A stretch of 64,000 bases of DNA, taken from sequence record MH051917, one strand, 5' to 3'. The notes beneath the pieces were generated by a model. That model did not search any database. It was not told the DNA's origin and was given only the letters and a program-made list of their open reading frames with translations. The translations under genes and the position numbers were made by a program. The DNA is from Enterobacteria phage vB_EcoM_IME341. Each line of letters begins with the position of its first letter. Positions within the stretch are counted from its first letter, which is position 1. Below are positions 3,573 through 41,235 of this stretch, one piece after another.

Positions 3573-3579
3573 AATATTA

Positions 3580-3587
3580 ATATTTAT
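3580..3587 (-). promoter_or_regulatory. T4-type late promoter TATAAATA (minus strand) for gene 53
   Basis: Plus-strand TATTTATA = minus-strand TATAAATA about 27 nt upstream of gp53 start. Confidence 0.6.
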
Positions 3588-3599
3588 AAGGAGGCGACT

Positions 3600-7205: not shown

Positions 7206-7234
7206 TGTTTACAAGGTCTATAGGCATGATACTA
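7206..7234 (+). promoter_or_regulatory. early promoter cassette (GTTTAC -35, 17-bp spacer, TACTAT -10)
   Basis: gtttacaaggtctataggcatgatactatagacctatcaa; spacer contains inverted repeat aggtctatag/ctatagacct. Confidence 0.6.
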
Positions 7235-7272
7235 TAGACCTATCAAAACAAACTAACCAAACGGAAATCAAA

Positions 7273-8712: not shown

Positions 8713-8815
8713 GAATTATGTGATATTATTACTCTATCATTAATACCCTCTATTACCAAAGGTTCTTCCCTCAAAGAATCTTTCATAATAGAATTAATCA
8801 ACTAATGAGGAAAAT

Positions 8816-9235
8816 ATGATTACTCCAATTCTTATCGATTTTAACAGCGAAACCTGGGAAAATCCAGAAATCGCTACAGAAGTATTTTATAACTGCCAAC
8901 CATCTGAAATTAACTATAATTGTTTTGACGGGAATTTAATCCGTATTTGGTTAAAATCTAAAGAACACTCGGCCCATATTGTGGCTACAGTCTGTGATGA
9001 CGAGTTATATGAAATGTGTTCCGGCGTAACAGAATTTGATGCCGATTTAATTGCTGGATGGTTATTCACTGTTTTATTTGAAGATGTTTGGTCACCAGGC
9101 GGTGAACAATTCTGTTTCAGCGAGTTTGGTAAAAAGTTAGGTGTTTTTTCTTCGGATGACACCAATTTTAATATTTCGCCTGATATTTGTGTACACTATG
9201 ATGGCCCTTCCGAAGGTTGGAATTGGTCTAGTTAA
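8816..9235 (+). CDS. hypothetical protein
   Basis: 139 aa ORF with SD GAGGAA upstream. Confidence 0.5.
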   Translation: MITPILIDFNSETWENPEIATEVFYNCQPSEINYNCFDGNLIRIWLKSKEHSAHIVATVCDDELYEMCSGVTEFDADLIAGWLFTVLFEDVWSPGGEQFCFSEFGKKLGVFSSDDTNFNISPDICVHYDGPSEGWNWSS

Positions 9236-9242
9236 GAATTAA

Positions 9243-9319
9243 GGCCCTGTAGCTCAATGGTTAGCAGCAGTCCCCTCATAAGGGAAAGGTTACCAGTTCA
9301 AATCTGGTCTGGGTCACCA
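9243..9319 (+). tRNA. tRNA with CAU anticodon (Met, or Ile2 lysidine-type)
   Basis: GGCCCTG acceptor, D-arm GCTCAATGGTTAGC, anticodon loop CTCATAA, T-arm ACCAG-TTCAAAT-CTGGT, 3' CCA; one acceptor mismatch. Confidence 0.7.
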
Positions 9320-9387
9320 ACTTTGATTAGGTAGAGCAGTCAACTTCTCCATGAATAAATATCTATATAAAATTCATGGAGAAAATT

Positions 9388-10047
9388 ATGCTTTGCCAAT
9401 ATTGTTCTAAAGAATGTAAAAACTTAAATTCACTAAAGCAACATGAAAAACGGTGCAAATCTAACCCAAATGGATTAGATATGAGCGGCCCTAATAACCC
9501 TCGTTTCGGTCTTAAAGGTGTCAATCAATTTACAAAAGCCAAAGAACTAGGTAAAGAAATAAAGGTTTCTGATAAAACCAGAGAAAAACTTAGAAAAGCC
9601 AATACAGGATATGTATGGTCTAATGAACGCAAAGAAGCACATTCTAAAAGAATGCGGCAAGCTGTTCTTGATAATCCTGATTCATATTCTGCTTCTAATG
9701 TTTCTGGTCGAGTAAAAACATATGAGTTTGACGGATTTAAATTTAAAGGGACTTGGGAATTAAAAGTTGCTAAGTTTTTAAAAGAACACAATATCAAATA
9801 TACTAATGAAATAAAGCCAATTCCTTACGAATGGGAAGGTTCAGAACATCTCTATTTTCCTGATTTTTATTTACCCACTTATGATTTTTATATAGAAGTC
9901 AAAGGATATAAAAGAGATAGAGACCTTTGTAAATGGAAAGCTTTAGAAAATTTGATAGTTTTAGAAAAAGATGAGATTTCCGATTTGTCTTGTCTTTTAA
10001 ATAAATTACGTCCCGCTGGTGTAATGGATAGCATACGATCCTTCTAA
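9388..10047 (+). CDS. putative freestanding homing-endonuclease-like protein
   Basis: N-terminal Cys cluster CQYCSKEC...HEKRC, NUMOD-like basic repeats, C-terminal PD-(D/E)xK-like FPDF...YIEVKG; inserted between tRNAs like seg genes in T4; ORF-track start 9376 lies inside a hairpin. Confidence 0.5.
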   Translation: MLCQYCSKECKNLNSLKQHEKRCKSNPNGLDMSGPNNPRFGLKGVNQFTKAKELGKEIKVSDKTREKLRKANTGYVWSNERKEAHSKRMRQAVLDNPDSYSASNVSGRVKTYEFDGFKFKGTWELKVAKFLKEHNIKYTNEIKPIPYEWEGSEHLYFPDFYLPTYDFYIEVKGYKRDRDLCKWKALENLIVLEKDEISDLSCLLNKLRPAGVMDSIRSF

Positions 10048-10084
10048 GTTTGCGGTCCTGGTTCGATCCCAGGGCGGGATACCA
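10010..10084 (+). tRNA. tRNA-Arg (anticodon UCU)
   Basis: Acceptor GTCCCGC/GCGGGAT, T-arm CCTGG-TTCGATC-CCAGG, anticodon loop with TCT, 3' CCA; first ~38 nt overlap the endonuclease ORF 3' end. Confidence 0.75.
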
Positions 10085-10342
10085 AATGAAGACTATTATA
10101 TAGTCAAGCCGTCGTATGAAGACTGATTGCCAGCATTCACCGGCGCAACAAACAAGAAACCGGGTCGCTACCGGTAAGTCGTCGGACTGAAGTTCTCTGG
10201 AGTATAGTTCCTCCCACAGTTGTACTGTGTTCTGGTTCTTTACTATCACAGCTGAAACGGCGCACCGAACACTTGCCTAGCAGGTGGAACCCCGACAAGG
10301 TTGCCGCAAGGCATAGCCCCTTCCGAAAGGTTGGGGCTTTTT
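10085..10342 (+). ncRNA. candidate structured small RNA(s) downstream of tRNAs
   Basis: About 260 nt without ORF, GC-richer than surroundings, ends in strong terminator; T4 encodes stable RNAs C/D of unknown function in its tRNA cluster. Confidence 0.3.
10315..10342 (+). terminator. intrinsic terminator
   Basis: agcccc-ttccgaaaggtt-ggggct followed by TTTTT. Confidence 0.65.
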
Positions 10343-15261: not shown

Positions 15262-15501
15262 ATGTGGTATTACGCTCCGATGTCCGATAAGTCTAATGAA
15301 CCGGTACGCATTACTCGTGCCAAGTTTAAAAAGATTTATGGCTTTGCTTATAAGAAGTCTGATTACGGTGTTCGTTTTGAAGATGCTCACTGTATCAATG
15401 ACCCTTATGCAGAAGAAATTTCTAATGAGATAATTCCTATCGTTGAGAGTAATTCCAATGATATGTGGGAATTGCATAACACTTACGTTGCCGAAATTTA
15501 A
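15262..15501 (+). CDS. hypothetical protein
   Basis: 79 aa, SD GAGGAG upstream. Confidence 0.5.
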   Translation: MWYYAPMSDKSNEPVRITRAKFKKIYGFAYKKSDYGVRFEDAHCINDPYAEEISNEIIPIVESNSNDMWELHNTYVAEI

Positions 15502-15520
15502 GTTTACTGAGGAAAATATT

Positions 15521-16480
15521 ATGATGCTAGTTATTGGTTCTCGCGCACTGCACCACGCTGGTCTGATTGAAAATAAGTATATCGAAAATTCTGATTGGGA
15601 TTTCATTGCCGACCAAGGCTCATGGAACCACTTTAAAGCTCGGATGTTCGGCGCCCATGTACACGTTGACAATCCTGATGTTCAGGCTTTCAAATGTATG
15701 CATAATGGTAAAGAAACCTATTTCGAAGCTTATATCGTCCGTGCTCTGACTAACGTACGTGAAATCACTGGTGAGCTCCAAGACGAAGATTTCACCTCAA
15801 GTTATCGTCTCCTGAAATATGCTGAAAATCGTATTAAAAAGGACCGTCTTACAGGTTTCTATTGGGCTACGCCTGATATCTGTCTGGCTATCAAAACCTC
15901 TCATCGTTTCCTGAAGAATAATCCTTTCTTCTTGAAAACTATGTCCCACATCAAATACCTTCGTAATAAAGGTATCACCCTGAATGAAGAACTCCAGGAA
16001 ATTATGCTGCAGCGTCAAAAAGAAACGTTGAGCTATTCCCACCCTAAATTGGATGTAAACAAATCATCGTTCTTTAACGATACCATTTATACGCTAGACC
16101 ACGACTCTATCCATGAAGCCGTGGCATTGGCAGGGCGCCCGGCATATACCTTTTATATGAAGGAAGGTTCTGAAGTCATGACCTCTCGTGAGAAGTTCGA
16201 GGCTTTGCCTGAAGCTATTAAACTGGCTGGTGTATATGAAGAAACTTGTGTCCTGGCACTAGAACGTTCACAGGTTCCTAATGACTTCAATATTTCACCA
16301 TCATTAAGTTTCTATATGGCTCTTGAGAAAGTGTGTACCTCAATCACTTCAGGTTGGTTCCGTGAGTACGCCTGGGAAAACTACCAAGCTGTGGTTAATA
16401 TGTACAAGACTTTAGGTGAAAACGACTACATCAAACGATTCCAAGATAACCATCATTTAATTCGTCCTTTCGAAAAATAA
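15521..16480 (+). CDS. hypothetical protein, possible nucleotidyltransferase-fold N-terminus
   Basis: 320 aa from ATG 15521 (SD GAGGAA); N-terminal GS...DWD resembles a loose Pol-beta NTase motif. Confidence 0.5.
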   Translation: MMLVIGSRALHHAGLIENKYIENSDWDFIADQGSWNHFKARMFGAHVHVDNPDVQAFKCMHNGKETYFEAYIVRALTNVREITGELQDEDFTSSYRLLKYAENRIKKDRLTGFYWATPDICLAIKTSHRFLKNNPFFLKTMSHIKYLRNKGITLNEELQEIMLQRQKETLSYSHPKLDVNKSSFFNDTIYTLDHDSIHEAVALAGRPAYTFYMKEGSEVMTSREKFEALPEAIKLAGVYEETCVLALERSQVPNDFNISPSLSFYMALEKVCTSITSGWFREYAWENYQAVVNMYKTLGENDYIKRFQDNHHLIRPFEK

Positions 16481-16492
16481 TTGCATAAAATT

Positions 16493-16521
16493 GTTTACAA
16501 GGTCTATAGGCATGATACTAT
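16493..16521 (+). promoter_or_regulatory. early promoter cassette
   Basis: gtttacaaggtctataggcatgatactatagacctatcaaaacaa, identical to the 7206 copy. Confidence 0.6.
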
Positions 16522-16558
16522 AGACCTATCAAAACAACAGAGTGAAATGGAGAATAAA

Positions 16559-16771
16559 ATGAAACTTTCTAACCAAGCAATCAACATGTTAAACGAAGTT
16601 CGTGCAGCTGGTGCTAAATGCCTGATGGTTAACACTCGTGACGGTGACCTTCGTCAAGCATTCGGTGAATTGAAATCTGCTGACCTGGTTAAATGTTCAG
16701 TTGGTATCGGTAACGCACTTCGTGTATCCTTATCCCCTAAAGGTAAAATGTACTTTTTCAACAAAAAGTAA
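16559..16771 (+). CDS. hypothetical protein
   Basis: 70 aa from ATG after cassette SD GGAG; ORF-track start 16481 is a TTG inside the promoter. Confidence 0.5.
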   Translation: MKLSNQAINMLNEVRAAGAKCLMVNTRDGDLRQAFGELKSADLVKCSVGIGNALRVSLSPKGKMYFFNKK

Positions 16772-16785
16772 GTGAGGAAAATATT

Positions 16786-17472
16786 ATGAACGGTCCAAAA
16801 ACTTTTAATTCTAAAGCTCGTGCAGTAGGTGGTTTCGCTGGTAAAATTTCTAATGATAAAATCAAAAACGAACCTATGTTCTTCAACAGCTCGTTGGCCT
16901 TCGCTTTTGATAATGGTGGCCCTATTACTCGCAGCTTCATCATGAACCTACCGGATGATTGGAACACTGACCGGGTTGTATTTGATTCTCGTGTTCATAT
17001 GCTGATGCCTGGCTGGTACCCTGCTATCCCAGGTTATCACCATGATGATGTACCACGTCCGGATATTCCGGTTGGCCAACACTTTATTACCGCAGGGCAG
17101 CCTGATTATGATAATCCTCGTTACCATTCTGAACATATTCTTGGTCTTGTTAACGCTGATGTGTGTCCTACCCATTTTGCAACCGGAACTGCGCAATTTA
17201 GCCAGATTCCTGAAGGCGAACTTATCTATCGCCAGTGGCATAAAGAAGTTCTGGAAAAAATTGAGTCCAATGAATTAACCAAGTGGGATGCTCCTGACCG
17301 CACGTTGCTCCAATTTGATTGGCAGACATGGCATACAGGTTCTCGTGCAGTAAGTAACGGTTGGCGCTGGTTTGGTCGTGTCTCTCGTAATACCGACCGT
17401 GTTAAAAAGATTACTAATGAAATCCGTGTTAATGCTCAAGTTTATCTGGAATTCCCTATGGAGGGCTGGTAA
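16786..17472 (+). CDS. hypothetical protein
   Basis: 228 aa, SD GAGGAA upstream. Confidence 0.55.
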   Translation: MNGPKTFNSKARAVGGFAGKISNDKIKNEPMFFNSSLAFAFDNGGPITRSFIMNLPDDWNTDRVVFDSRVHMLMPGWYPAIPGYHHDDVPRPDIPVGQHFITAGQPDYDNPRYHSEHILGLVNADVCPTHFATGTAQFSQIPEGELIYRQWHKEVLEKIESNELTKWDAPDRTLLQFDWQTWHTGSRAVSNGWRWFGRVSRNTDRVKKITNEIRVNAQVYLEFPMEGW

Positions 17473-18059
17473 TGGCCCTTTATGAACCCGGGTGTATGGG
17501 CATTGATGTAAACTTCATCCGTCGGTCGGAAAATGCCGGAATTATTATCCCAAGAGGTGAGAATATGATTATTAAAAAGTCCTGGCGAAATCTCGATGAC
17601 GGTGATGAAGGAATTTCAGCCAGTACAATAGATTGGTCAGGTTGTACTGCTGAAATGAAACAGCTTTTAATTGAGGAATATAAAATGGGTTATATCGTAA
17701 ACGGTTGGCAACCTGAACCACATAAAGAGCAGACTCCGGACCCGTTGATTTGTTATAGTAAAAAATACGGCTTTCGCGCATGGAGTGACGAATATGACAA
17801 ATTAGTGAGTTCTAGGTTCTATGTTTGGATGGGAATATTATTTTTTCCACTCCTTTGGTTTTTCCTGACAACAGATAATGACCTGCCTATTTGTGTATTC
17901 GCTTCAGCGATGTCTGCGGCTATCTCGGGTCTTATTGCGTCATTTTTATGGACCTCGGTTATCGAAGTACCTTTTCGTATTTCTAAAGTTAAAAAGGTAT
18001 ATGATGATATCTCCAAGAAAAATACATTAAACTCTTTTATTGAGGAATGCCGTAAATGA
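17472..18059 (+). CDS. membrane protein
   Basis: TAATG overlap with previous gene; alternative start about 17565 after SD AGAGGTGA; hydrophobic segments; C-terminus FIEECRK. Confidence 0.5.
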   Translation: MALYEPGCMGIDVNFIRRSENAGIIIPRGENMIIKKSWRNLDDGDEGISASTIDWSGCTAEMKQLLIEEYKMGYIVNGWQPEPHKEQTPDPLICYSKKYGFRAWSDEYDKLVSSRFYVWMGILFFPLLWFFLTTDNDLPICVFASAMSAAISGLIASFLWTSVIEVPFRISKVKKVYDDISKKNTLNSFIEECRK

Positions 18060-18292
18060 GTATTGCAATTTATATTAAATCTGAGTCATGTGATTCTTAT
18101 CTGTATTCCTATGATACCGGAACGTCAGAAGAAAAAATCAAAGAAGATTTAGAAAGCGACTTGGATATGTTCCGACCTATTTCTGATTATATGGTCCAAA
18201 TATCTGATAGTGAAAGTCCGTCAACAGAAACGTGTGTTGAAATTATTATACGAGATATCTTTAAACAATCATGGGACCGAGACAATGAGTAA
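18056..18292 (+). CDS. small acidic protein
   Basis: 78 aa, ATGA overlap with upstream gene. Confidence 0.45.
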   Translation: MSIAIYIKSESCDSYLYSYDTGTSEEKIKEDLESDLDMFRPISDYMVQISDSESPSTETCVEIIIRDIFKQSWDRDNE

Positions 18293-18734
18293 GAAAGCTA
18301 AGGAATTATCGGCAGGTATTTTGTTCATGACTGTTGATAAAGAACTGGTCATGGGGCGTGTAACAGGCTCTCGTAATCCAGAGAATATGCGTCATAAATG
18401 GGACATTCCTAAAGGTCATGTCGAACCAGGCGAAGAGCCTATTCAAGCGGCAATGCGTGAAACCGAAGAAGAGATTGGATTCACAGCATACGATCCTGCG
18501 TTCCTGAAAGACCTAGGTGAGTTCAAATATTCAAGCAATAAGAATCTACATCTGTTCTTATATACGGTGCCTGTGGAACACGAGCAGTTCAAGAATTGCA
18601 AATGTACGGCTTACCATACGTTCCCTGACGGTCGCACGATTCCTGAATTCGATGCGTTTGCCTTGATTAAACGTCCACAATGGGAATATGTCATGGGTAA
18701 GTCGATGTTTAAGGTTTTAGATTCGCTCTTTTGA
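18285..18734 (+). CDS. nudE: Nudix hydrolase (T4 NudE / e.1-like)
   Basis: Nudix box GHVEPGEEPIQAAMRETEEEIG; immediately upstream of lysozyme gene e as T4 e.1. Confidence 0.8.
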   Translation: MSKKAKELSAGILFMTVDKELVMGRVTGSRNPENMRHKWDIPKGHVEPGEEPIQAAMRETEEEIGFTAYDPAFLKDLGEFKYSSNKNLHLFLYTVPVEHEQFKNCKCTAYHTFPDGRTIPEFDAFALIKRPQWEYVMGKSMFKVLDSLF

Positions 18735-18742
18735 TATAAATA
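18735..18742 (+). promoter_or_regulatory. T4-type late promoter TATAAATA for gene e
   Basis: Exact TATAAATA 23 nt upstream of e start, overlapping the 5' arm of an RBS hairpin. Confidence 0.6.
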
Positions 18743-18764
18743 CCTCCTATACTCAGGAGGTATT

Positions 18765-19259
18765 ATGGATATTTTTGATATGTTACGTCAAGACGAAGGT
18801 CTTGATTTAAATCTTTATAAAGACACCGAAGGTTATTGGACTATTGGGATTGGCCAGTTGATTACCAAAAACCCTTCAAAAGATGTTGCTCGTGCCGAAC
18901 TTGATAAGCTTATGGGCCGGGTTTGCAACGGTCGTATTACTATGGCTGAAGCTGAACAACTCTTTAACCGATCGGTTGAAAATGCTCGTAGAGCTATTCT
19001 GCGTAATCCTAAATTGAAACCTGTTTATGATGTACTGGACGAAGTTCGTCGTTGTGCTTTAATTAACATGGTCTTCCAGATGGGTGAAGCAGGTGTAGCT
19101 GGGTTCACTAACTCTTTACGTATGCTCCAACAGAAACGTTGGGACGATGCGGCAGTTAACCTGGCTCAATCCCGTTGGTATAAACAAACTCCTAATCGTG
19201 CTAAGCGCGTGATTTCAACATTTAAAACAGGTACTTGGAAAGCATATGAAAACTTATAA
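18765..19259 (+). CDS. e: endolysin (T4 lysozyme, gene e)
   Basis: 164 aa; [54 protein letters not shown]; highly similar to T4 lysozyme. Confidence 0.95.
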
Positions 19260-19548
19260 TGAATTTATCACTGAAGCCCGCGTAACCGCAGGTAAATTAG
19301 AAGCCGCTGTAAATAAAAAGGCCCATTCATTTCATGATTTGCCAGATAAAGACCGTAAGAAACTTGTAAGCCTTTATATTGACAAAGAGCGTATTCTCGC
19401 TCTCCCGGGCGCTAATGAAGGTAAACAGGCCAAGCCTTTGAATTCTGTCGAAAAGAAAATTGATAACTTTGCTTCTAAGTTTGGTATGTCTATGGATGAC
19501 CTTCAGCAAGCGGCTACCGAAGCAGCTAAAGCAATTAAAGGTAAATAA
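19246..19548 (+). CDS. internal protein (ipII/ipIII-like) with capsid-targeting sequence
   Basis: N-terminus [13 protein letters not shown]; 100 aa; between e and denV where T4 has ipIII/ipII. Confidence 0.7.
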
Positions 19549-19551
19549 CAG

Positions 19552-19580
19552 TTTACTTTTACAATAGCTGTGATATAGTG
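19552..19580 (+). promoter_or_regulatory. early promoter (GTTTAC / TATAGT)
   Basis: gtttacttttacaatagctgtgatatagt; downstream inverted repeat gtgttctc/gagaacac covers the denV SD. Confidence 0.45.
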
Positions 19581-19608
19581 TTCTCACACAAACATGGAGA
19601 ACACTAAA

Positions 19609-20025
19609 ATGACTCGTATTAACCTTACCTTAGTATCTGAATTGGCCGACCAACACTTAATGGCTGAATATCGCGAATTACCACGTGTTTTCGGTGCAGT
19701 TCGTAAGCATGTTGCTAATGGTAAACGTGTTCGTGATTTTAAAATTAGCTCTACTTTTATCCTTGGTACCGGCCATGTTACTTTCTTTTATGATAAGCTT
19801 GAATTTTTACGTAAACGTCAAATCGAGCTTATAGCCGAATGTTTAAAACGTGGTTTTAATATCAAGGACACTACGGTCCAAGACATTAGTGATATTCCTC
19901 AGGAATTCCGTGGTGACTATACTCCACACGAAGCTTCTATTGCTATATCTCAGGCCCGTTTGGACGAAAAAATTGCACAGCGTCCTACCTGGTACAAACA
20001 TTATGGCAAGGCTATTTACGCTTAA
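19609..20025 (+). CDS. denV: endonuclease V, pyrimidine dimer DNA glycosylase
   Basis: [35 protein letters not shown]... nearly identical to T4 endo V; ORF-track start 19594 is an upstream in-frame ATG. Confidence 0.95.
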
Positions 20026-20067
20026 TTAAATCCGTGATAGAATACTTCTATCAACTTAAGGAATAAT

Positions 20068-20367
20068 ATGAAAACTTATCAAGAATTTATTACAGAAGCC
20101 AAAGCTCCTAAAGCATTTCAAATTGGAGTTCAAGGCAATTTAGACCAAGAATATGTTGATGCTATTGTAGCAAGCCTCGGTAAACAGGGTGTACAAGTGG
20201 ATTTTGTTGATTTTACCAAAGGTAATACTTTTAATATTGTTACATCTAAAGGTTCTTTAGCTAAAGTTAAAAAGGCCTTTGGCGTAGCACAAGCATATGA
20301 AATCGACCACTCCGAATTGGAAAATAAAGGTCGCCAGAACACAATTAAAGGTTCTGGTTCTTTCTAA
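20068..20367 (+). CDS. internal-protein-like protein with capsid-targeting sequence
   Basis: N-terminus MKTYQEFITEAKAP; 99 aa. Confidence 0.65.
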   Translation: MKTYQEFITEAKAPKAFQIGVQGNLDQEYVDAIVASLGKQGVQVDFVDFTKGNTFNIVTSKGSLAKVKKAFGVAQAYEIDHSELENKGRQNTIKGSGSF

Positions 20368-20463
20368 TAAAGGCAAGCCGGCCCTCTCCTCATGAACGTC
20401 GCGTCCTCTGAGTGATGGACCTTTCCCTACCTGTAATAAGGTCGAGCCCAAGTGCGGTAAAGG

Positions 20464-20492
20464 GTTTACATACGGATACATGGACGAATTAT
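20464..20492 (+). promoter_or_regulatory. possible early promoter (GTTTAC, weak -10)
   Basis: gtttacatacggatacatggacgaattat. Confidence 0.3.
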
Positions 20493-20527
20493 GTGCCAAG
20501 GAACGGCCCCACCACTAAGAGACTACT

Positions 20528-21055
20528 ATGAAATTTTTAACTCCCATTTATCTAACCTTAATGCACGCCTTCGCTGAACGCGCCATTGAACGTTTAGACT
20601 CAGACCAATATACCTGGTATGAACCTGCTTCAAGAATGCAAGAGTTTGGTACTCTTCGACTTGATGGCGGACGCCAAACAGGTAAAACAAGTGCCCTTGC
20701 TCAGTTCGCAGCTGATTGGGTTTCCAAGGGTAATGATGTGATTGTTATGTCAAGTTCTTCGCATCGCTCGCGGGAAATCTGTAATATAATAAAGCGGGTT
20801 TCTAAGGCACAACCGCATCTTAATGTTGACCAACCCGGTTTTATCGTCTACGATACTGTTCGTTCATTTTTAGATGAAGATCATTTCCATAAGTACCGTG
20901 GGCTATCTGTTACCCGATTATTGATTATTATTGAAGAGCCGATGCGCCTTCCGGCAATGGATAAGTTCTATGAAGCTTATCAGGTAATGATTAATAAATT
21001 TATGTGCCAAGGCGACAAACCTTTACCTCTGTTCTTTGTGATAGGAATGCAATGA
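20528..21055 (+). CDS. P-loop NTPase of unknown function
   Basis: Walker A GGRQTGKTS; 175 aa. Confidence 0.55.
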   Translation: MKFLTPIYLTLMHAFAERAIERLDSDQYTWYEPASRMQEFGTLRLDGGRQTGKTSALAQFAADWVSKGNDVIVMSSSSHRSREICNIIKRVSKAQPHLNVDQPGFIVYDTVRSFLDEDHFHKYRGLSVTRLLIIIEEPMRLPAMDKFYEAYQVMINKFMCQGDKPLPLFFVIGMQ

Positions 21056-25995: not shown

Positions 25996-26023
25996 AGACC
26001 TATCAACTAATGAGGAAAACAGT

Positions 26024-26260
26024 ATGAAACTTACAAGTACTACGGTTTCATTAGAATATGAAATCAACGGTCGTATCCTTGAGATTAAGATATTCGACGA
26101 CCGAAGTATCTTTGCCGATTATCGAGGATACAGAATTCGTCTGGAAAAGGACGAGCTCAAGGAACCGTGGCTCCTTAAAGACACATTAAAGGGTTGTGGG
26201 TGTAAACTGAAAACCACCCAAGCCCAAGAATTAATTTCTACTATCAACAAATACTGGTGA
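26024..26260 (+). CDS. hypothetical protein
   Basis: 78 aa. Confidence 0.5.
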   Translation: MKLTSTTVSLEYEINGRILEIKIFDDRSIFADYRGYRIRLEKDELKEPWLLKDTLKGCGCKLKTTQAQELISTINKYW

Positions 26261-26264
26261 TATT

Positions 26265-26447
26265 ATGTTAACTACTGAACAGTGTGCAAAAATTCTTAAA
26301 TTGGCTATTGAAATTGAAAGAGATTCTAACGACCTTGCGGTTGAGATGTGTGAAGGTTATTCATATTCCGGAATAGAACGGTGTAAACGAGATTTGGCTA
26401 AATCAAAACAGGCTTTGGTTGATTATTTAGAAGAATTGAAAGCATAA
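26265..26447 (+). CDS. hypothetical protein
   Basis: 60 aa. Confidence 0.45.
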   Translation: MLTTEQCAKILKLAIEIERDSNDLAVEMCEGYSYSGIERCKRDLAKSKQALVDYLEELKA

Positions 26448-26471
26448 TGGCTGGTGGCATAGGAGCATGAT

Positions 26472-26567
26472 ATGATTTACTATCTTGAACCTTGGGCTTG
26501 GCTAACAATGGCTGTAGGGCCTGTTTTAATTGGTTTATTCTTTTCATGGTTAGCGAGGAAACTGTAA
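26472..26567 (+). CDS. possible 31-aa hydrophobic peptide
   Basis: MIYYLEPWAWLTMAVGPVLIGLFFSWLARKL after SD AGGAG; TAATG overlap with next ORF; below ORF-track size cutoff. Confidence 0.3.
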   Translation: MIYYLEPWAWLTMAVGPVLIGLFFSWLARKL

Positions 26568-26764
26568 TGTTATACGATCCGAGTGGTTGTTCTGAAGATG
26601 GTATTATTGTTCTTTTGGCAGATGTTGAAGAATCTGACGATGATATCTTTGTTAAAGATTGGGAAGAAAAAGGTGGAATTACGCTCCAACAAGAAAATGA
26701 TATGATTTGTCTGAACGCAAGCCAAGTCGAAGAGCTTTATAGTATTTTAAAACACAACCGGTGA
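26567..26764 (+). CDS. small acidic protein
   Basis: 65 aa from ATG after SD GAGGAA (ORF-track start 26492 is TTG). Confidence 0.45.
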   Translation: MLYDPSGCSEDGIIVLLADVEESDDDIFVKDWEEKGGITLQQENDMICLNASQVEELYSILKHNR

Positions 26765-26767
26765 TTT

Positions 26768-26950
26768 ATGAAAACCGAAGAAAAGCACTTAAAGCTTGAA
26801 GAGCTTATCGAGATATATTCTGGAGCAGTGGCCAGATTTGAAACTGCGTTTTGCAACGATTACCCAGCTAGTGAATGCAGCAGGCTTTCTAAAGAAGAAG
26901 ATGAAGCTCTTAAAGAGTTGTTAAATTTTATTAAACAAAATGTGAAATGA
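26768..26950 (+). CDS. hypothetical protein
   Basis: 60 aa. Confidence 0.45.
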   Translation: MKTEEKHLKLEELIEIYSGAVARFETAFCNDYPASECSRLSKEEDEALKELLNFIKQNVK

Positions 26951-26960
26951 GGAACGGAAA

Positions 26961-27521
26961 ATGATTATTGAAACATCTGGGTTGTTTGGTGACCTGACCG
27001 CTGAAGTAGTTGATAATGCAATTGTGCTTTCACAAGAAGACGATAAAATCGTACTGACTATCCAAGATATCAAACCACTTTACGATTTAAAGGTTTTGGA
27101 CAAACACCAATATCTTAATGGTAGTTTTAGAGGTGTATTTAATATTAACGATGATATGTGGGCCCAGATTTATAACCATGACAACGGGTTTAATTTGGAA
27201 ACGGATAGGGAATGTCTAAGCATTAGTGATTCTGCTAATTTCTTTAAATGTATTTTTAAACTGTTCCAGGAAGAATGTAAGCCAGAAGTCGAATGGAAAG
27301 TCCCTGGCCAAGATGCGGTGATTCGTTCTAGTGAAACCTTTGAGGGTGACGAAGAAGAACTGGATTATGACACCGAATTGTCCGTGTATCAACACCAGGG
27401 TCGTGATTTGCTATCCTTGACCCAAAGACATGACGGTGAAAATGAAGTGGTATTTACTAAGGACGAGCTCAAGGCTTTAGTCTCTTATCTGAACTCTGTT
27501 ATCCCAACTATGAACTCTTAA
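26961..27521 (+). CDS. hypothetical acidic protein
   Basis: 186 aa, SD GAGGAA. Confidence 0.5.
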   Translation: MIIETSGLFGDLTAEVVDNAIVLSQEDDKIVLTIQDIKPLYDLKVLDKHQYLNGSFRGVFNINDDMWAQIYNHDNGFNLETDRECLSISDSANFFKCIFKLFQEECKPEVEWKVPGQDAVIRSSETFEGDEEELDYDTELSVYQHQGRDLLSLTQRHDGENEVVFTKDELKALVSYLNSVIPTMNS

Positions 27522-27530
27522 GGAAATATT

Positions 27531-27983
27531 ATGATTATCAATACAAACTCTTGGCACGTTAAATTACACGACCGTTTTTATGACCGTCATTCTCGACCGC
27601 ACTCTTTATGTGCTTACTTCTGGAAAATGGTTTGGGCCTGTTTTGCTTGTGCTGTTGTTGCAGGTAGTACGCTTTTTGGATTAACTGTTGCAGGCGCTGG
27701 TGTATTAGAGCATTTCTTTGTATTAAGTACCCCTGTTCTGTTGAGTCTAGGGTTTGTTTTAGGGTTGATTACGATAGCTCTTATTATTGCGCTATCCATT
27801 GGTTTGGCATTCGGTGCGATGAATTTACACGCATGGTATGATGCCCGTAGAGAAGAAAAGGAATGGCAACGTATTCAAGCTGAGCGTGAAGGCCGAGAAA
27901 CTAAAGAAAACGTTGTCATCCAATATATTAAAGCTCGTAAATCTAAGGTCTGCCCTGTAATCCACTTCGAGAACAAAGAATGA
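27531..27983 (+). CDS. membrane protein
   Basis: 150 aa, two long hydrophobic segments. Confidence 0.5.
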   Translation: MIINTNSWHVKLHDRFYDRHSRPHSLCAYFWKMVWACFACAVVAGSTLFGLTVAGAGVLEHFFVLSTPVLLSLGFVLGLITIALIIALSIGLAFGAMNLHAWYDARREEKEWQRIQAEREGRETKENVVIQYIKARKSKVCPVIHFENKE

Positions 27984-28990
27984 GAACAGTTATGAAAGGC
28001 TACTTCGGTAGCCACCTTTATGGAACAAGTACTCCGGAATCTGATGTCGATTTTAAAGAAATCTTTGTTCCACATCCGCGTGATATTCTGTTAGGTACGG
28101 CTATGAACCATACCAACCTGAATACGAATAACACCGCTTCCAAAAACACTAAAGATGATGTTGACCACGAGCTTTATAGCCTGAAATATTTCTTTAAACT
28201 AGCGGCTGAAGGCGAAACCGTTGCTCTGGACATGATTCATACTCCACCTGAACTGGTGGTTAAATCTGATTTACCTGATGTATGGAAATTTATCCAGGAT
28301 AACCGTTCACGGTTCTATACAACCAACATGAAAGCCTATTTAGGGTACGTCCGTAAGCAAGCTTCTAAATATGGTGTTAAAGGTTCTCGTCTGGCTGCTC
28401 TGCGTGGTGTACTGGCTATTGTTAACCAGATTCCTGAACAGTGGGTCGATTATCAAGAAGATGGTTCGACTAAGCAACGTCGCTCTAAGGTGGAAGATAT
28501 CAAACATCGGCTCCCTGAAAACGAATTCTGTGAATGGGTATTCCATAACCATGAGAAAACAGGTCCTCAAACGTTTTATACTGTTCTCGGACGTAAATAC
28601 CAAACCACTCTGTCATTAATCGAGCTCAAGCAATCTCTGAATAAGCTCGATGCGGAATATGGTGAACGTGCTCGTAAGGCTGAAGCCAATGAAGGTATTG
28701 ACTGGAAAGCTCTGAGCCATGCTTATCGTGCTGGTTATCAGTTGAAGGAAATCTATCAAACAGGTGACCTGGTTTATCCGCTTAAAAATGCTTCTATTAT
28801 TAAAGCAATAAAAGCAGGTGATATGCCTTTTAAAGTGGTCCAAGGGCTGTTGGAAAATATTGTTGATGAAGTCGAAGTCCTGGCTATCCAGGCTCATAAG
28901 AACGGTATGCCTGAGAAGGTAGATATGAAGTTCTGGGACAAGTTCGTTGAAGAGGTGTACCTTGACAACCACAACGCTTATTACCGCTAA
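27980..28990 (+). CDS. Pol-beta superfamily nucleotidyltransferase, unknown substrate
   Basis: N-terminal GSHLYGTSTPESDVDF (hG[GS]x9-13DxD) plus downstream ALDMIH acidic motif; 336 aa. Confidence 0.55.
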   Translation: MRTVMKGYFGSHLYGTSTPESDVDFKEIFVPHPRDILLGTAMNHTNLNTNNTASKNTKDDVDHELYSLKYFFKLAAEGETVALDMIHTPPELVVKSDLPDVWKFIQDNRSRFYTTNMKAYLGYVRKQASKYGVKGSRLAALRGVLAIVNQIPEQWVDYQEDGSTKQRRSKVEDIKHRLPENEFCEWVFHNHEKTGPQTFYTVLGRKYQTTLSLIELKQSLNKLDAEYGERARKAEANEGIDWKALSHAYRAGYQLKEIYQTGDLVYPLKNASIIKAIKAGDMPFKVVQGLLENIVDEVEVLAIQAHKNGMPEKVDMKFWDKFVEEVYLDNHNAYYR

Positions 28991-29186
28991 AGAAGAAATT
29001 AACGTCTTTCTATCGTATGGAAGACCTCATAAAACTCGACGTTGGTATCTTGAAGCCGTCTGTAAAGAAACCGGACGTCGAGTCAATATCAAGTACGCAT
29101 GCAAACCTACGCCTAAACAGACAAGACGATTTGTTAACTGGGCTATAAATGATATCCGCTTCTATAATTTTTGGAGCGCAATTTAG
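28947..29186 (+). CDS. possible small basic protein
   Basis: ORF-track ORF with TTG start overlapping NTase 3' end; ends at terminator. Confidence 0.25.
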   Translation: MKRCTLTTTTLITAKEEINVFLSYGRPHKTRRWYLEAVCKETGRRVNIKYACKPTPKQTRRFVNWAINDIRFYNFWSAI

Positions 29187-29207
29187 GAACCTTCGGGTTC
29201 CTTTTTT
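29185..29207 (+). terminator. intrinsic terminator
   Basis: aggaacc-ttcg-ggttcct + TTTTTT. Confidence 0.7.
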
Positions 29208-29226
29208 GGGTTTAGTGCAAAAAGGT

Positions 29227-29255
29227 GTTTACAACCTCGTAGAGCATGATACTAT
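29227..29255 (+). promoter_or_regulatory. early promoter cassette
   Basis: gtttacaacctcgtagagcatgatactatagacctatcaaataa. Confidence 0.6.
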
Positions 29256-29303
29256 AGACCTATCAAATAAATGAACTGAAACAACTTAAAACGGAGATAC
29301 AAA

Positions 29304-29558
29304 ATGAATATTAAAGCACCTTTCGCCGGTAATGTTATTCGTGAAGATTCAATCGAAATCAACGGTGTGGTAGTTAAAGCGGTTTTAACTGATATCAAAA
29401 CCCTGGTTAAAGTTGATTACTTAACCTTTAATTTCGAAAACATTGAAGGTTATATTAATTTCCCACCAAGCATTAAAATGCATGTACGCCATGAAACTTG
29501 GTCTAAAGCAGATCAGCAAAAAGCAGTAGATTTTATTATTGAGTTCTTCTCAAAATAA
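29304..29558 (+). CDS. hypothetical protein
   Basis: 84 aa. Confidence 0.5.
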   Translation: MNIKAPFAGNVIREDSIEINGVVVKAVLTDIKTLVKVDYLTFNFENIEGYINFPPSIKMHVRHETWSKADQQKAVDFIIEFFSK

Positions 29559-29560
29559 GT

Positions 29561-29589
29561 GTGTACATATGCTTTAAACGTGTTATTAT
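29561..29589 (+). promoter_or_regulatory. degenerate early promoter cassette (GTGTAC / TATTAT)
   Basis: gtgtacatatgctttaaacgtgttattatagacctatcaa. Confidence 0.4.
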
Positions 29590-29626
29590 AGACCTATCAA
29601 ATCTACTGAGTGAAATGGAGAATATA

Positions 29627-30607
29627 ATGTTAACTATCAAAATCAACAAAGGTATCTATCGCGGTAATGAAATCTCTGGTACGTTCATGAGTTCAGGTAA
29701 AACCTGGTTCCCTAATAAAATTCATGAATCCGAAGCTCACCTCGGTGATGGCAAGGTATTCGTACAGATTGATGGTGTTGAACGTGGTGTATGGGTGTTC
29801 AAATGTGACGTTGAAATGGAAGGTGCTGAAGCTCCTGTAGTGGTTACTGAATCCGCTGAAGAAATGAAACATCGCATCAACAAACGTTTTAAAGTAATGA
29901 ACATGATGACTAACGGAATCATCGATGGTAAAATTCGTTCCCTTATCATCTCTGGTGCCGCAGGTATTGGTAAAACGTATTCTTTGGATAAAGCATTACA
30001 GAATGCCCATGAAAATGAAACTATCGAATATAAATCAATCAACGGAAAGATTAGTGGAATCGGTCTTTACGAGCAGCTTTGGAATAACCGCGGCCCTAAT
30101 AGTGTTCTTCTTATCGATGATGTTGATGTATTCTCTGATATGGATATCCTGAACCTGTTAAAAGCAGCATTGGATACCGGTGAAAAACGTAAGGTGTGCT
30201 GGAGCACTTCAAGTTCTTACCTCGATGATAAAAATATCGATAAAGAATTCGAATACGAAGGCACCATCGTGTTCATCACCAACGTTGATATTGACCGTGA
30301 ATTAGAACGTGGAACTAAACTTGCTCCACACCTCCAGGCTTTAGTATCTCGTTCAGTTTACTTAGACCTCGGAGTTCACTCTAACGAAGAGATTATGGTT
30401 CGTGTTGAAGACGTTATCCTGTCCACTGATATGATGCAAAACCGAGGTCTGTCTGATGCTGAGACCTATCAAGCTTTAGCATGGATGAAGGCTAATGTAT
30501 CTCGTCTTCGTAACGTATCATTACGTACAGCTCTTTATCTAGCGGACTTCATTGCCACCGATAAAAATGACTGGAACGAAATCGCTGAAGTTACCCTTCT
30601 GAAATAA
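29627..30607 (+). CDS. P-loop AAA-type ATPase of unknown function
   Basis: Walker A SGAAGIGKT, Walker B VLLIDDVD; 327 aa from ATG after cassette SD. Confidence 0.55.
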   Translation: MLTIKINKGIYRGNEISGTFMSSGKTWFPNKIHESEAHLGDGKVFVQIDGVERGVWVFKCDVEMEGAEAPVVVTESAEEMKHRINKRFKVMNMMTNGIIDGKIRSLIISGAAGIGKTYSLDKALQNAHENETIEYKSINGKISGIGLYEQLWNNRGPNSVLLIDDVDVFSDMDILNLLKAALDTGEKRKVCWSTSSSYLDDKNIDKEFEYEGTIVFITNVDIDRELERGTKLAPHLQALVSRSVYLDLGVHSNEEIMVRVEDVILSTDMMQNRGLSDAETYQALAWMKANVSRLRNVSLRTALYLADFIATDKNDWNEIAEVTLLK

Positions 30608-30617
30608 AGGTGAAATT

Positions 30618-30959
30618 ATGTTCGAACAATTTAGTTACGACCTTATAAAAGCAGAGTTGAAGTACTCTAATGCCATGAAACAGTCCGTCGAGGACTACGA
30701 TAATGAATTTAAATACAAATTCGCCGAAAAGGTTTATAAAACCGATTGTGAAGAAGGAGACTACAAGAGACTGGCCTTGGCCGCTAAGACTCAGGCCTTA
30801 ATAAATCTAGACCGTAAGCAGGTAAAGTTGGCAGGCGACTTCCGAGGTGAACTCTGCGCCATCAGGAATGAATACCTTATTCGTATTAAACACCAACGGA
30901 AAGAGAACAACCAATCCGCTTGGTTTAGTGGTCAATCAGGTGAAAAAAGTTTCTATTAG
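30618..30959 (+). CDS. hypothetical protein
   Basis: 113 aa. Confidence 0.5.
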   Translation: MFEQFSYDLIKAELKYSNAMKQSVEDYDNEFKYKFAEKVYKTDCEEGDYKRLALAAKTQALINLDRKQVKLAGDFRGELCAIRNEYLIRIKHQRKENNQSAWFSGQSGEKSFY

Positions 30960-30961
30960 TT

Positions 30962-30990
30962 GTTTACATCTCCAGTAGAAATGATACTAT
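30962..30990 (+). promoter_or_regulatory. early promoter cassette with RBS-sequestering inverted repeat
   Basis: gtttacatctccagtagaaatgatactatagacctatcaactactggag; arms ctccagtag / ctactggag. Confidence 0.6.
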
Positions 30991-31016
30991 AGACCTATCA
31001 ACTACTGGAGGTTATC

Positions 31017-31541
31017 ATGAACGCTAAAGATATTTTTTCACTGATTAATTTCAACAACGGTAATTTCAAATCTGAAAAACAAAGCAAGTTCTTTAACGAC
31101 GTTGCTTGTGGTAATGAGATTACCGTATCTGGAGGAGAGATTTACAAAAGCCGTTGGAACTGGATTGCTATCATCGATTCAGTTGGTATTGTAGAGCTCT
31201 ATAAAAACACTAACAAAAAACGTATTCTTTACTGGAGTCGTGAAAACAATCAAGCTTATCAAGCTGAACGTAACAAACGTTTAATGCCTACTGAATCTGA
31301 CCTGGCAAACGTTAAATCTGATATCGCTTATTTCGATAATCTGATTGCCGAACAACAAGCAGTTATTGATAAGTTTGACGAAATCAAAGCTTGTAAAGAG
31401 ATTCCTGAATTCATGCGGGAATCAGTAAACGAACAGTACGCCCTCACTTCAGGTCGTATCGAGCAGTACAAATCACAACGAGCTGAACGCCAAGCTCTGC
31501 TTCAGAAATTTGAAGAGCGTTTAAAGACGGTTCTCGCATAA
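31017..31541 (+). CDS. hypothetical protein with C-terminal coiled coil
   Basis: 174 aa. Confidence 0.5.
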   Translation: MNAKDIFSLINFNNGNFKSEKQSKFFNDVACGNEITVSGGEIYKSRWNWIAIIDSVGIVELYKNTNKKRILYWSRENNQAYQAERNKRLMPTESDLANVKSDIAYFDNLIAEQQAVIDKFDEIKACKEIPEFMRESVNEQYALTSGRIEQYKSQRAERQALLQKFEERLKTVLA

Positions 31542-31542
31542 A

Positions 31543-31567
31543 CGCTTTATACCAAGGATGGTATAAT
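31543..31567 (+). promoter_or_regulatory. possible T4-type middle promoter (MotA box + -10)
   Basis: cGCTTTA, 12 bp, TATAAT; palindrome tacca/tggta across the -10. Confidence 0.35.
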
Positions 31568-31604
31568 GGTTCTAGGTTCTTAATTACTTACTGAGGAAAT
31601 TATT

Positions 31605-32447
31605 ATGTCACAGGCAATTAATCAAATTCGTTCTGAAGTTAAAAAAGTTATTAAATTTGGTCGTATTCCACTGAATAAAGAAGTGGTTGAAAAGGTTTTG
31701 GCCATGATGTGGGAAAAGTTTGAAGTTTGTATTTCTGTAGATGAATTCACTAAAATCTTTGACAAGACTAAAGGTTTGTTTACGTTAGAAGACAGAGTCA
31801 TGAAATCTCTTCACAGGGCCGGTATGTTGACTCGTGCTAACGCCAGAATTATTCTTAGAAATTATAACAAAGGCTACGACCTCTATGGTCGTTTAATCCC
31901 GGCGATGTCATTTGATGAAGTTGTTAAAGATCTTCGTACTAACCAACGTCGTTTACTAGCACTGGGTGCTCGTCTGGCTTTAGGTAAAGATAAGCAAATG
32001 CCATTTAAGACTAATGGTTCGGGCGATTGGATTATCTTTAATATTGTCAACCAACCAGGTAACGAAAACGAGTATCTTACTTCAACTTTTAGTGGTTGTC
32101 AATATGACAATTGGAAATTCCATCTTCGATTAGCTTTGTCCGAACTCGAACGTAGCGGTATTCTTACCTTCGATAATGTTAATACCAGTACAGGCTGGCG
32201 TATTAAACTTGTTAAGCCCGGTAATGAAGTTAAAAGTCATTCAGAAGCTCCTAAACCAGAACCTGTGCCAGTGCGCAGCAATGAGAAGCATCAAGCCCAG
32301 ATTGAGTATTTTAGCAATTTGCTTACTTGCTTGAATGTTACAATCCAACAACAAGATGATGAGATTTTCCGACTCTCTGGTCTGAATGCTAAAGCTAAGG
32401 CTGAACGTCAAAAATATATCGATATCCTAAATCTTCTTAAGGATTAA
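31605..32447 (+). CDS. hypothetical protein with C-terminal coiled coil
   Basis: 280 aa. Confidence 0.5.
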   Translation: MSQAINQIRSEVKKVIKFGRIPLNKEVVEKVLAMMWEKFEVCISVDEFTKIFDKTKGLFTLEDRVMKSLHRAGMLTRANARIILRNYNKGYDLYGRLIPAMSFDEVVKDLRTNQRRLLALGARLALGKDKQMPFKTNGSGDWIIFNIVNQPGNENEYLTSTFSGCQYDNWKFHLRLALSELERSGILTFDNVNTSTGWRIKLVKPGNEVKSHSEAPKPEPVPVRSNEKHQAQIEYFSNLLTCLNVTIQQQDDEIFRLSGLNAKAKAERQKYIDILNLLKD

Positions 32448-32448
32448 T

Positions 32449-32652
32449 ATGGCTATAATTATCAGTTTTATTTTTGGATACCTTGTGATAGGATTCATTA
32501 CTGTCCTTATTGGTCGTAATCATATGGAAATTAACTCAGGTGGTGAAGCAGTATTCGCTACCTTTATTTGGCCTGTGCTTGTTTTATTTGGAATAGTTTC
32601 TATTGTGACTTGGCCTTTAGCTAAACTCTATGAAAAATTATTTGGACTTTAA
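32449..32652 (+). CDS. small membrane protein
   Basis: 67 aa, two hydrophobic helices. Confidence 0.45.
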   Translation: MAIIISFIFGYLVIGFITVLIGRNHMEINSGGEAVFATFIWPVLVLFGIVSIVTWPLAKLYEKLFGL

Positions 32653-32653
32653 T

Positions 32654-33523
32654 ATGAACATTAAAACACGTAAAGAATATTCCCGATATGATTTTGATAC
32701 CACACGTCGTATCGCTATCGATCGGCTGGCCGACTTCGGCCATATTTGTAATGGTAATTATACTTATGGTGTAGGACGTAAAGGGACTTATATTAGTTCT
32801 TTGAACGATTATTGCCGTTGCCCAGCCCATCTGTTTGGAGCAACATTGCGAGCTAATATCAAAGACCTCTTGGCTACTGCAGGACGTATTTCTACGGTTC
32901 CTGTCAATATCAAGAATATTAATTTTACGGCTCGTAACCTAGTCATTAATATTCTGTCTGACGGTATCCAAGTTCGTTTCCGTCCTACCTCAAAAGGTAA
33001 TAAGGCCCTTCGTGAAGCATTCGAAACCTTATTCAGAGAAGCAATGACTCGTATTAAGGCAGTAGAATCATATAAAGTTACAACCGATGAATATGCTGAT
33101 TGTTCCGGACGGCCTGATGCAGTGTATTTTAATGTTAAACTAACTCGTGAATATCTTTTGTCTTATGCCCCTTATCAATCCCAACAAAAGGACCCACAAA
33201 TGGAACGTCGTATCTCTGCAGTATCATGTGACAGTGTAGGCCAGTATGCAGCCTATGACAAATTCAAAACCACAGCCGTGCCTAGTCCATTCAATTCTGA
33301 ACCGTATCATTGGAAAATTAAACCCGAGAATTCTTTGGTTGTTACTAACCCTACGATGAAACCTATCGAGAAGTATCATGAGGACCACCTCCAGGAATCA
33401 ATCCACCGTTTAAACGGTCAGATCGAAGATGAGAAAAAGAGTATTCAAGACGTACTGATTCGCATCAAGAACATGGAACTCCAGCGTGACAAGCTCCGCT
33501 CGGCAGTATTAGCTCTAAAATAA
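32654..33523 (+). CDS. hypothetical protein with C-terminal coiled coil
   Basis: About 290 aa; start ambiguous (32630 or 32654). Confidence 0.45.
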   Translation: MNIKTRKEYSRYDFDTTRRIAIDRLADFGHICNGNYTYGVGRKGTYISSLNDYCRCPAHLFGATLRANIKDLLATAGRISTVPVNIKNINFTARNLVINILSDGIQVRFRPTSKGNKALREAFETLFREAMTRIKAVESYKVTTDEYADCSGRPDAVYFNVKLTREYLLSYAPYQSQQKDPQMERRISAVSCDSVGQYAAYDKFKTTAVPSPFNSEPYHWKIKPENSLVVTNPTMKPIEKYHEDHLQESIHRLNGQIEDEKKSIQDVLIRIKNMELQRDKLRSAVLALK

Positions 33524-33524
33524 T

Positions 33525-33554
33525 GTTTACATCCAAGGACGGATGGAGTATAAT
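33525..33554 (+). promoter_or_regulatory. early promoter (GTTTAC / TATAAT)
   Basis: gtttacatccaaggacggatggagtataat. Confidence 0.55.
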
Positions 33555-33580
33555 CTTTCTATCAACTTGAGGAGAATATC

Positions 33581-36883: not shown

Positions 36884-36888
36884 TAAAT

Positions 36889-36913: not shown

Positions 36914-36918
36914 TTATT

Positions 36919-40677: not shown

Positions 40678-41235
40678 ATGACCGAAATTAAACTGACTAA
40701 AAATAACTATGTAAATAATAAGGAGCTTCTGAAAGCTATTACCCAATGGAAAACAGAGCTCAGAGAAAATACCGATCCTAATAAAATAGTTCGTCAGAAC
40801 GACGTTATCGGCTTGGCTATTATGCTCATTGCTGAAGGACTAAGTAAACGTTTCAACTTCTCAGGATATACCCAATCTTGGAAGCAAGAAATGATTGCTG
40901 ATGGAATCGAAGCTTCGATTAAAGGTCTTCACAACTTCGACGAAACAAAATACGACAACCCACATGCATATATCACTATGGCTTGTTTTAATGCCTTCGT
41001 TCAGCGTATCAAAAAAGAACGTAAAGAAATGGCAAAGAAATATAGCTACTTCGTCCATAACGTCTATGACAGTAATGATGACGACATGGTAGGTATTGCA
41101 GATGAAACCTTTATCCAAGATATCTACGACAAAATGACTCAGTATGAAACCTCTTTAACTAAAGCACCAGGGTCTGATAAGAGTGCCGAACCTAAAGTTG
41201 GTGAACTGGATTTTTTATATGGAACATCAGATTAA
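40678..41235 (+). CDS. 55: gp55 late-transcription sigma factor
   Basis: 185 aa; [71 protein letters not shown]; highly similar to T4 gp55. Confidence 0.9.

Follow-up and report, generated by a model that had tools for sequence, protein, structure and literature searches.

The lysozyme gene e of Enterobacteria phage vB_EcoM_IME341 (MH051917) lies directly downstream of nudE, on the same strand as a long run of other genes, which raises the question of how a cell-wall-degrading enzyme could be withheld from early read-through RNA and still be made efficiently late in infection. We addressed this question in a 64,000-nt stretch of the phage sequence, hereafter the window. Over the kilobase that surrounds gene e, the window matches Escherichia phage IME08 (HM071924.1; Dhakavirus, Tevenvirinae) at 100% identity; elsewhere, BLAST alignment of the window to HM071924.1 returned 84-99.6% identity with indels and unaligned gaps (e.g. 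8798-10148, 20542-21025, and 36319-36612), and the best match in the phage collection for positions 26000-34000 reached about 95%. Judged by these alignments, the phage is a member of the JS98/IME08 group and not IME08 itself, and the window looks like a mosaic Dhakavirus relative.

The gene e product is 75% identical to T4 lysozyme, with catalytic residues E11, D20, and T26 invariant and a Pfam Phage_lysozyme domain, and the gene has the same neighbors, in the order nudE-e-ip, as in T4 and IME08. Across the nudE-e junction the region reads ...TTT TGA TATAAATACCTCCTATACTCAGGAGGTATT ATG GAT..., and the 30-nt spacer is made up of the T4-type late promoter box TATAAATA and a hairpin, and nothing else (Table 1). 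A first-pass annotation of this DNA had placed TATAAATA (18735-18742) and a pair of complementary arms (acctcct / aggaggt) upstream of the lysozyme gene, with the Shine-Dalgarno (SD) sequence in the 3' arm. These motifs and coordinates were exact: acctcct lies at 18742-18748, aggaggt at 18755-18761, and the gene e ATG at 18765, with AGGAGG inside the stem. The hairpin had, however, been described as 7 bp, whereas folding yields a helix of 10 perfect Watson-Crick pairs. Because the helix is longer than first thought, the box overlaps its 5' arm by 4 nt, and the stem stops 1 nt before the AUG.

Table 1. Coordinates of the gene e leader and of associated features in the window.
Feature	Position	Strand	Basis or remark
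nudE (Nudix hydrolase) CDS	18285..18734	+	ORF list; Pfam NUDIX, E 7e-15; syntenic nudE annotation in IME08 and T4
nudE stop TGA	18732-18734	+	directly abuts late promoter box
Late promoter box TATAAATA, T4-type, gp55-dependent (predicted)	18735..18742	+	exact motif; -13 to -6 by T4 geometry
Hairpin 5' arm AAUACCUCCU, containing anti-SD CCUCC	18739..18748	+	RNA folding
Predicted late +1, 6-7 nt past last A of box	18748..18749	+	placed from T4 box geometry
Hairpin loop AUACUC, 6 nt	18749..18754	+	sequence and folding
Hairpin 3' arm AGGAGGUAUU, SD and spacer before AUG	18755..18764	+	RNA folding
Shine-Dalgarno AGGAGG	18755-18760	+	part of 3' arm
Gene e, soluble T4-type lysozyme (endolysin), 164 aa	18765..19259	+	ORF, identity to T4 e, Pfam
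gp55 late sigma factor gene	40678..41235	+	phmmer against PDB 7d7c chain F, E 6e-94
Gene 49, endonuclease VII	ORF 36919-37392; leader architecture 36883-36921	+	Pfam Endonuclease_7 and dimerisation domain
Nearest upstream candidate early promoter, TTTACA-16-TACTAT with TG	16494..16527	+	promoter scan; inside 28-nt perfect stem-loop
Copies of early-promoter-like motif TGATACTATAGACC	7214-7241, 16500-16527, 1243, 7788, 11027, 22060, 25979, 30974, 60003, 60952	+	

The 29-nt hairpin segment folds at -14.1 kcal/mol, compared to -3.7 +/- 1.95 kcal/mol for dinucleotide shuffles (z = -5.3; 0/200 as stable), and when all perfect hairpins with 10 or more stem base pairs and a 3-10 nt loop were counted exhaustively, the 64 kb window contained 3 vs 0.63 expected per shuffle. 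An Rfam search of positions 18500-19000 with E up to 10 returned sub-threshold minus-strand noise only (maximum 20.7 bits vs cut-offs of 55-85). We expressed the accessibility of the ribosome-binding site (RBS) as an opening energy, calculated from ensemble free energies as the penalty for keeping positions 18755-18767, from the SD to the AUG, unpaired. RNAs beginning at -200, -100, -60, or the box itself carry a predicted cost of 12.7-14.3 kcal/mol, with an SD unpaired probability of 0.01 in the -80..+40 early context, in line with the proposal of the first-pass annotation that the RBS would be sequestered in early read-through RNA. For 5' ends at 18747-18750 it drops to a predicted 3.7-4.5 kcal/mol, a gap of about 9-10 kcal/mol between long and short leaders, and the minimum free energy of the short leaders is no better than that of shuffles (z +0.19 to +0.25). 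Their SD unpaired probability is merely moderate (0.26-0.32) because of weak alternative pairings, which are themselves no better than in shuffled sequence. Folding of the two leader variants thus bears out the contrast originally drawn between them, with a long form that is occluded and a short form unstructured beyond shuffles. The accompanying statement that late transcripts would lack the 5' arm holds for a +1 placed near 18748 by T4 spacing (about 4 kcal/mol) but fails for a start immediately after the box: from 18743, a 6-bp helix would persist, at a predicted opening energy of 8.8-9.1 kcal/mol, so that the statement depends on T4 spacing.

Given that the window and IME08 are 84-99.6% identical with indels outside gene e, RBS occlusion was ranked across genes on IME08 coordinates, after many annotated starts had been shifted by one codon. 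Among the 114 annotated starts of the IME08 early region, the gene e RBS came second (14.5 kcal/mol; median 5.0, 95th percentile 11.8), and no other start with a credible ATG and SD had a higher opening energy. The RBS of gene 49, the other known T4 case, ranked fourth.

Whether TATAAATA is a genuine late promoter has to be judged on other grounds than its frequency: the motif is not enriched in the window (5 sites vs 7.3 expected), hence the promoter call rests on position, conservation in relatives, and the T4 precedent instead of motif statistics. The same lack of over-representation would fit an explanation in which the leader has no function, TATAAATA being a chance A+T-rich octamer and the complementarity a by-product of a strong SD near a promoter-proximal pyrimidine run. 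The hairpin, an outlier against all 200 shuffles and of a kind rare in the window, speaks against this, and so does the distribution of the anti-SD. T4 late boxes span -13 to -6 (PMC2988020), a geometry that would place the late +1 near 18748, where the 5' arm ends. The sequence downstream of such boxes is normally A+T-rich (PMC2988020), in contrast to the G+C-rich stretch that follows the gene e box. When the window was pooled with 50 kb from the late region of IME08, giving 114 kb of Dhakavirus DNA, 20 TATAAATA sites were counted; the gene e site alone has an anti-SD (CTCC/CCTCC) after it, and all others are A+T-rich downstream. At the level of sequence, the anti-SD is therefore specific to gene e and no generic feature of late promoters, which provides an independent argument for selection. 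The late sigma factor gp55, the trans-acting factor needed for use of the TATAAATA box, is encoded in the window.

In T4, gene e is reportedly preceded by an RBS-occluding hairpin with late promoters inside it, a mechanism said to have been shown experimentally (McPheeters et al. 1986, Nucleic Acids Res 14:5813). The longer early transcripts of T4 gene e form an inhibitory structure that cuts lysozyme synthesis about 100-fold (PMC3014915, citing McPheeters et al. 1986); RNAs started at either of the two late promoters do without the 5' strand of this structure and are translated well (PMC3014915). The T4 nudE-e leader (NC_000866), TATAAATACCTTCTATAAATACTTAGGAGGTATTATG, folds at -13.3 kcal/mol vs -14.1 here. 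It precedes an orthologous gene and follows the same nudE, TATAAATA overlaps the 5' arm in both phages, and the SD and the UAUU spacer between SD and AUG are identical. The arms form the same 10 pairs, AAUACCU(C/U)CU / AGGAGGUAUU, except for a single C-to-U change that converts a C-G into a U·G pair, and the T4 stem hence contains one wobble whereas 10 of 10 pairs are Watson-Crick here. The apical part differs more: the T4 loop spans 10 nt by the register used (8 by RNAfold, which closes one extra A-U pair) and carries, within AUAAAUACUU, a second TATAAATA and thus a second late start, while the 6-nt loop here has no second box. At the other end, the nudE stop abuts the box here but is separated from it by 3 nt in T4, where it lies 7 nt from the stem instead of 4. 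The first-pass annotation's identification of the classical T4 gene e arrangement was therefore well founded, with the distinction that the T4 element is experimentally validated and the one described here is predicted.

Taken together, these observations lead us to interpret the 30-nt spacer, with a probability of roughly 85%, as the ortholog of the T4 gene e leader, a switch that times translation. In the early phase, transcription by host RNA polymerase would run rightward along the early genes, which lie on the same strand, pass through nudE, and continue into gene e, and in the resulting long RNAs AAUACCUCCU would pair with AGGAGGUAUU, burying the lysozyme SD in the 10-bp helix. We propose that 30S subunits would then be unable to dock, and hence that no lysozyme would be made before progeny assembly. 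After the onset of replication, gp55-RNA polymerase would recognize TATAAATA and initiate near 18748, inside or just past the 5' arm, yielding a late mRNA with an unstructured leader of about 17 nt, a free AGGAGG, and efficient translation. Three of these steps, namely early read-through into gene e, the translational block of the early RNA, and the position of the late start, are carried over from T4 by analogy. Such an element would keep the enzyme off early read-through RNA and confine lysis capacity to the late phase, a clean example of gene timing through the choice of transcription start instead of a regulator. It is an already known element, since the T4 switch to which it is orthologous has been characterized and its conservation in relatives published: a 2010 review predicted that closely related phages have leaders of this kind, their 5' strand containing a late promoter (PMC3014915). 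The local differences (one late promoter, a 6-nt loop, and all-Watson-Crick pairs) are incremental, and the leader opens no new question. Literature searches on IME08 and JS98 found no paper discussing the gene e leader.

The proximity of nudE nevertheless invites a different account of the same hairpin, in which it tunes lysozyme synthesis and does not block it. Ribosomes finishing nudE would unwind the 5' arm from 18739 onward and allow low, coupled translation of lysozyme from early RNA; the element would set this basal level, and the late promoter would merely add mRNA. A stop-to-stem distance of this size falls within the ribosome footprint, and a terminating ribosome should transiently melt the helix. 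The nudE stop is indeed just 4 nt from the first paired base in a spacer of 30 nt overall, and relatives also keep the distance between the nudix gene and e short (32-33 nt). Melting by ribosomes could accordingly make repression leaky. However, a 10-bp hairpin with a 6-nt loop refolds quickly, and the layout in T4 is almost identical (7 nt between stop and stem), yet the early RNA there forms the inhibitory structure, with the approximately 100-fold reduction reported (PMC3014915). Since T4 is repressed despite this similar geometry, we treat leakiness as a minor modifier of the switch; as a replacement for it, tuning appears unlikely, and the two are not mutually exclusive.

Relatives were sampled with a protein-anchored scan, which returned 71 loci encoding gene e homologs and, not depending on the leader, introduced no bias toward it; eight GenBank phages were added. 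Wherever a late box could be identified in a Tevenvirinae leader (20 distinct sequences; genera Tequatrovirus, Dhakavirus, Kanagawavirus, Winklervirus, Karamvirus, and Jiaodavirus by record taxonomy), ATAAATA precedes the ATG by 27-34 nt, with an anti-SD and an SD-containing hairpin after it. Predicted opening energies across these 20 leaders are 10-19 kcal/mol for the early and 1-8 kcal/mol for the late form. The core ATAAATAC is invariant in 19 of 19 aligned distinct Tevenvirinae leaders, with unrelated sequence in the upstream flank, and the first box position is T, A, or G, a variability consistent with T4 late promoters, for which A(-13) and other variants with a single deviation are described (PMC2988020). 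Outside this group, the phi92-like phages FKP3 and PD06 and the Aeromonas Angelvirus AsFcp_2 have neither box nor hairpin upstream of their gene e homologs, in agreement with the phages listed as lacking an apparent structure in the earlier review (PMC3014915).

Plain MAFFT alignment placed ACTCC-type and ACCTCC-type 5' arms out of register, so pairs were counted instead on the alignment produced by a purpose-built covariance model (28 leaders, 15 distinct); the model missed three Moon-like loci (L024, L025, and L070) and a fourth, L015, which were folded directly. In this alignment, which is itself fitted to the structure, standard pairs occupy 83-87% of helix cells vs 40-57% when partners are slid by 1-3 columns. 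Some compensatory changes of the kind anticipated by the first-pass annotation are present. CCUCC/GGAGG is replaced by CCCC/GGGG in one leader (L007) with the helix kept, and loss of a C from the 5' arm in X20-like leaders is matched by a change from GGAGG to GGAGU, the X20 helix being ACUCCUAUAU/GUAUAGGAGU. The helix is also kept, as CUCCUAUC/GAUAGGAG, in L016 and Moon-like phages. In Karamvirus, Kanagawavirus, and Moon-like phages, the basal AAUA/UAUU pairs are replaced by apical ones, and the apical extension itself varies among leaders (UAUC/GAUA vs UAUAU/GUAUA). Strict two-sided changes are, however, few: they affect just 1-2 of 11-13 pairs, and the covariation score of 0.075, compared to 0.058 in shuffled alignments, is reached by 9-18 of 500 shuffles. 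We attribute this sparseness to the nature of the arms, one being the SD and the other abutting an invariant promoter.

The fact that most helix pairs never vary, along with these weak covariation statistics, is what a functionless by-product would also predict. Such a by-product is nonetheless scarcely credible, given that divergent leaders retain the helix with different arm sequences and lengths amid randomized flanks, that homologs of gene e in non-Tevenvirinae do without both box and hairpin, and that T4 provides an experimental precedent.

The early half of the proposed switch requires transcription to reach gene e from upstream. From about 15.5 kb to gene e, every gene is encoded on the + strand, and the ORFs overlap or abut one another. 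A terminator scan of positions 15500-21000 made no call at the nudE-e junction, and no convincing + strand terminator was found between the nearest upstream promoter candidate (Table 1) and gene e; this candidate is a possible origin of the early read-through RNA. The gene e hairpin, a stable stem-loop at the end of nudE, could alternatively be read as an RNA end or stability element, acting as the nudE terminator, as a 3' stabilizer, or as a barrier to RegB or RNase E at GGAG, which is a RegB target motif (PMC3014915); regB is encoded nearby. Among these, a rho-independent terminator was rejected, as the stem is followed by AUGGAUAU with no U-run and was not called by the scan. More generally, the 3' arm is the gene e SD in all 20 lineages, with the stem ending within a few nucleotides of the AUG, a placement that a 3'-end element would not need, and the late promoter core is co-conserved in the 5' arm. 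An RNA-end or stability function is thus very improbable.

The temporal switch that we favor has counterparts beyond gene e. In the leaders of T4 gene 49 (endonuclease VII), soc, I-TevI, and Aeh1 mobE, the RBS of a late gene is sequestered in early or middle read-through RNA (PMC3014915), and the logic is the same, with a late promoter in or beside the 5' strand of the helix that hides the SD; these genes and arm sequences are unrelated to those of e, making them analogs, not orthologs. The window contains the gene 49 version: AATAAATA at 36883-36890 overlaps the 5' arm of a hairpin folding at -14.1 kcal/mol (z -3.55; 0/200 shuffles as stable), the 3' arm carries the gene 49 SD, and RNA starting at 36897 is predicted to be unstructured. 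The gene e covariance model also matched this site (E 0.23), which corresponds to the known T4 gene 49 case. Generic bacterial RBS-sequestering hairpins likewise pair the SD in a local stem, translation efficiency scaling with helix stability, and repression is predicted from opening energy as done here. Unlike in those leaders, where a ligand, temperature, a protein, or upstream translation acts as the switch, it is here the choice of transcription start.

Leaders of more distant lysozyme genes hint at a broader distribution. The T4L-type lysozyme gene of Cronobacter phage S13 (L027, 1450-1494) is preceded by an SD-burying hairpin, AACCUCUUCUAAA/UUUAGAGGAGGUU, at -22.7 kcal/mol (z -6.0), with the box-like sequence TCTAAATA in its 5' arm. 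SD-burying hairpins also occur on two prophage-like contigs (L042, 1440-1503, -14.9 kcal/mol, z -4.8; L049, 1420-1462, -23.8 kcal/mol, z -6.9), with weaker z-scores in L043, L045, L047, and L048 of the same group. Within the Tevenvirinae, the helix migrates along the leader through its basal AAUA/UAUU or apical UAUC/GAUA extension, and the number of promoters varies. An endolysin RBS hidden by a leader hairpin and relieved by a promoter inside it may occur more widely, and in more variable forms, than T4 alone would lead one to expect, a generalization that we offer tentatively and consider doubtful at this stage. Should the distant hairpins represent independent inventions, unmasking of an RBS by start-site selection would be a general device for lysis timing.

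For annotation purposes, the leader marks a late promoter, flags a single-promoter, all-Watson-Crick Dhakavirus variant of the T4 leader, and fixes the true gene e start at ATG 18765, which the closest GenBank record places one codon early. Among the 114 CDS of that IME08 annotation (L083/L084), at least 22 have their start placed one codon before the genuine ATG, including gene e (ATT, window position 18762) and gene 49, and a further 31 annotated starts are ATA, ATT, or ATC; the off-by-one-codon starts are a systematic annotation artifact.

Several other features of the window were noted along the way. The early-promoter-like motif ...TGATACTATAGACC occurs in 10 copies, all on the + strand, vs 0.04 expected; the copies at 7214-7241 and 16500-16527 share one sequence, a perfect 28-nt stem-loop (AGGTCTATAGGCATGATACTATAGACCT) preceded by a TTTACA -35 element, and resemble the promoter-early stem-loop (PeSL) cassettes of T4-type phages. 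Just downstream of the leader, an ipII-like ORF (19246-19548) begins 14 nt inside the 3' end of gene e (19246-19259), its ATG overlapping the e CDS, which suggests translational coupling of this internal head protein gene to lysozyme. The denV leader (approximately 19560-19596; ORF 19594-20025) has the third-highest predicted opening energy among credible IME08 early-region starts (12.6 vs a median of 5.0 kcal/mol), with GUGUGA.../...UCACAC-type pairing and no obvious SD at its start. Finally, two TATAAATA boxes stand back to back at 3566-3573 (+) and 3581-3588 (-) in an A+T-rich palindrome; downstream of each box come an SD and an ATG, and the two are probably divergent late promoters. The late region of IME08 has similar pairs (L082, 34346/34367 and 38569/38572).
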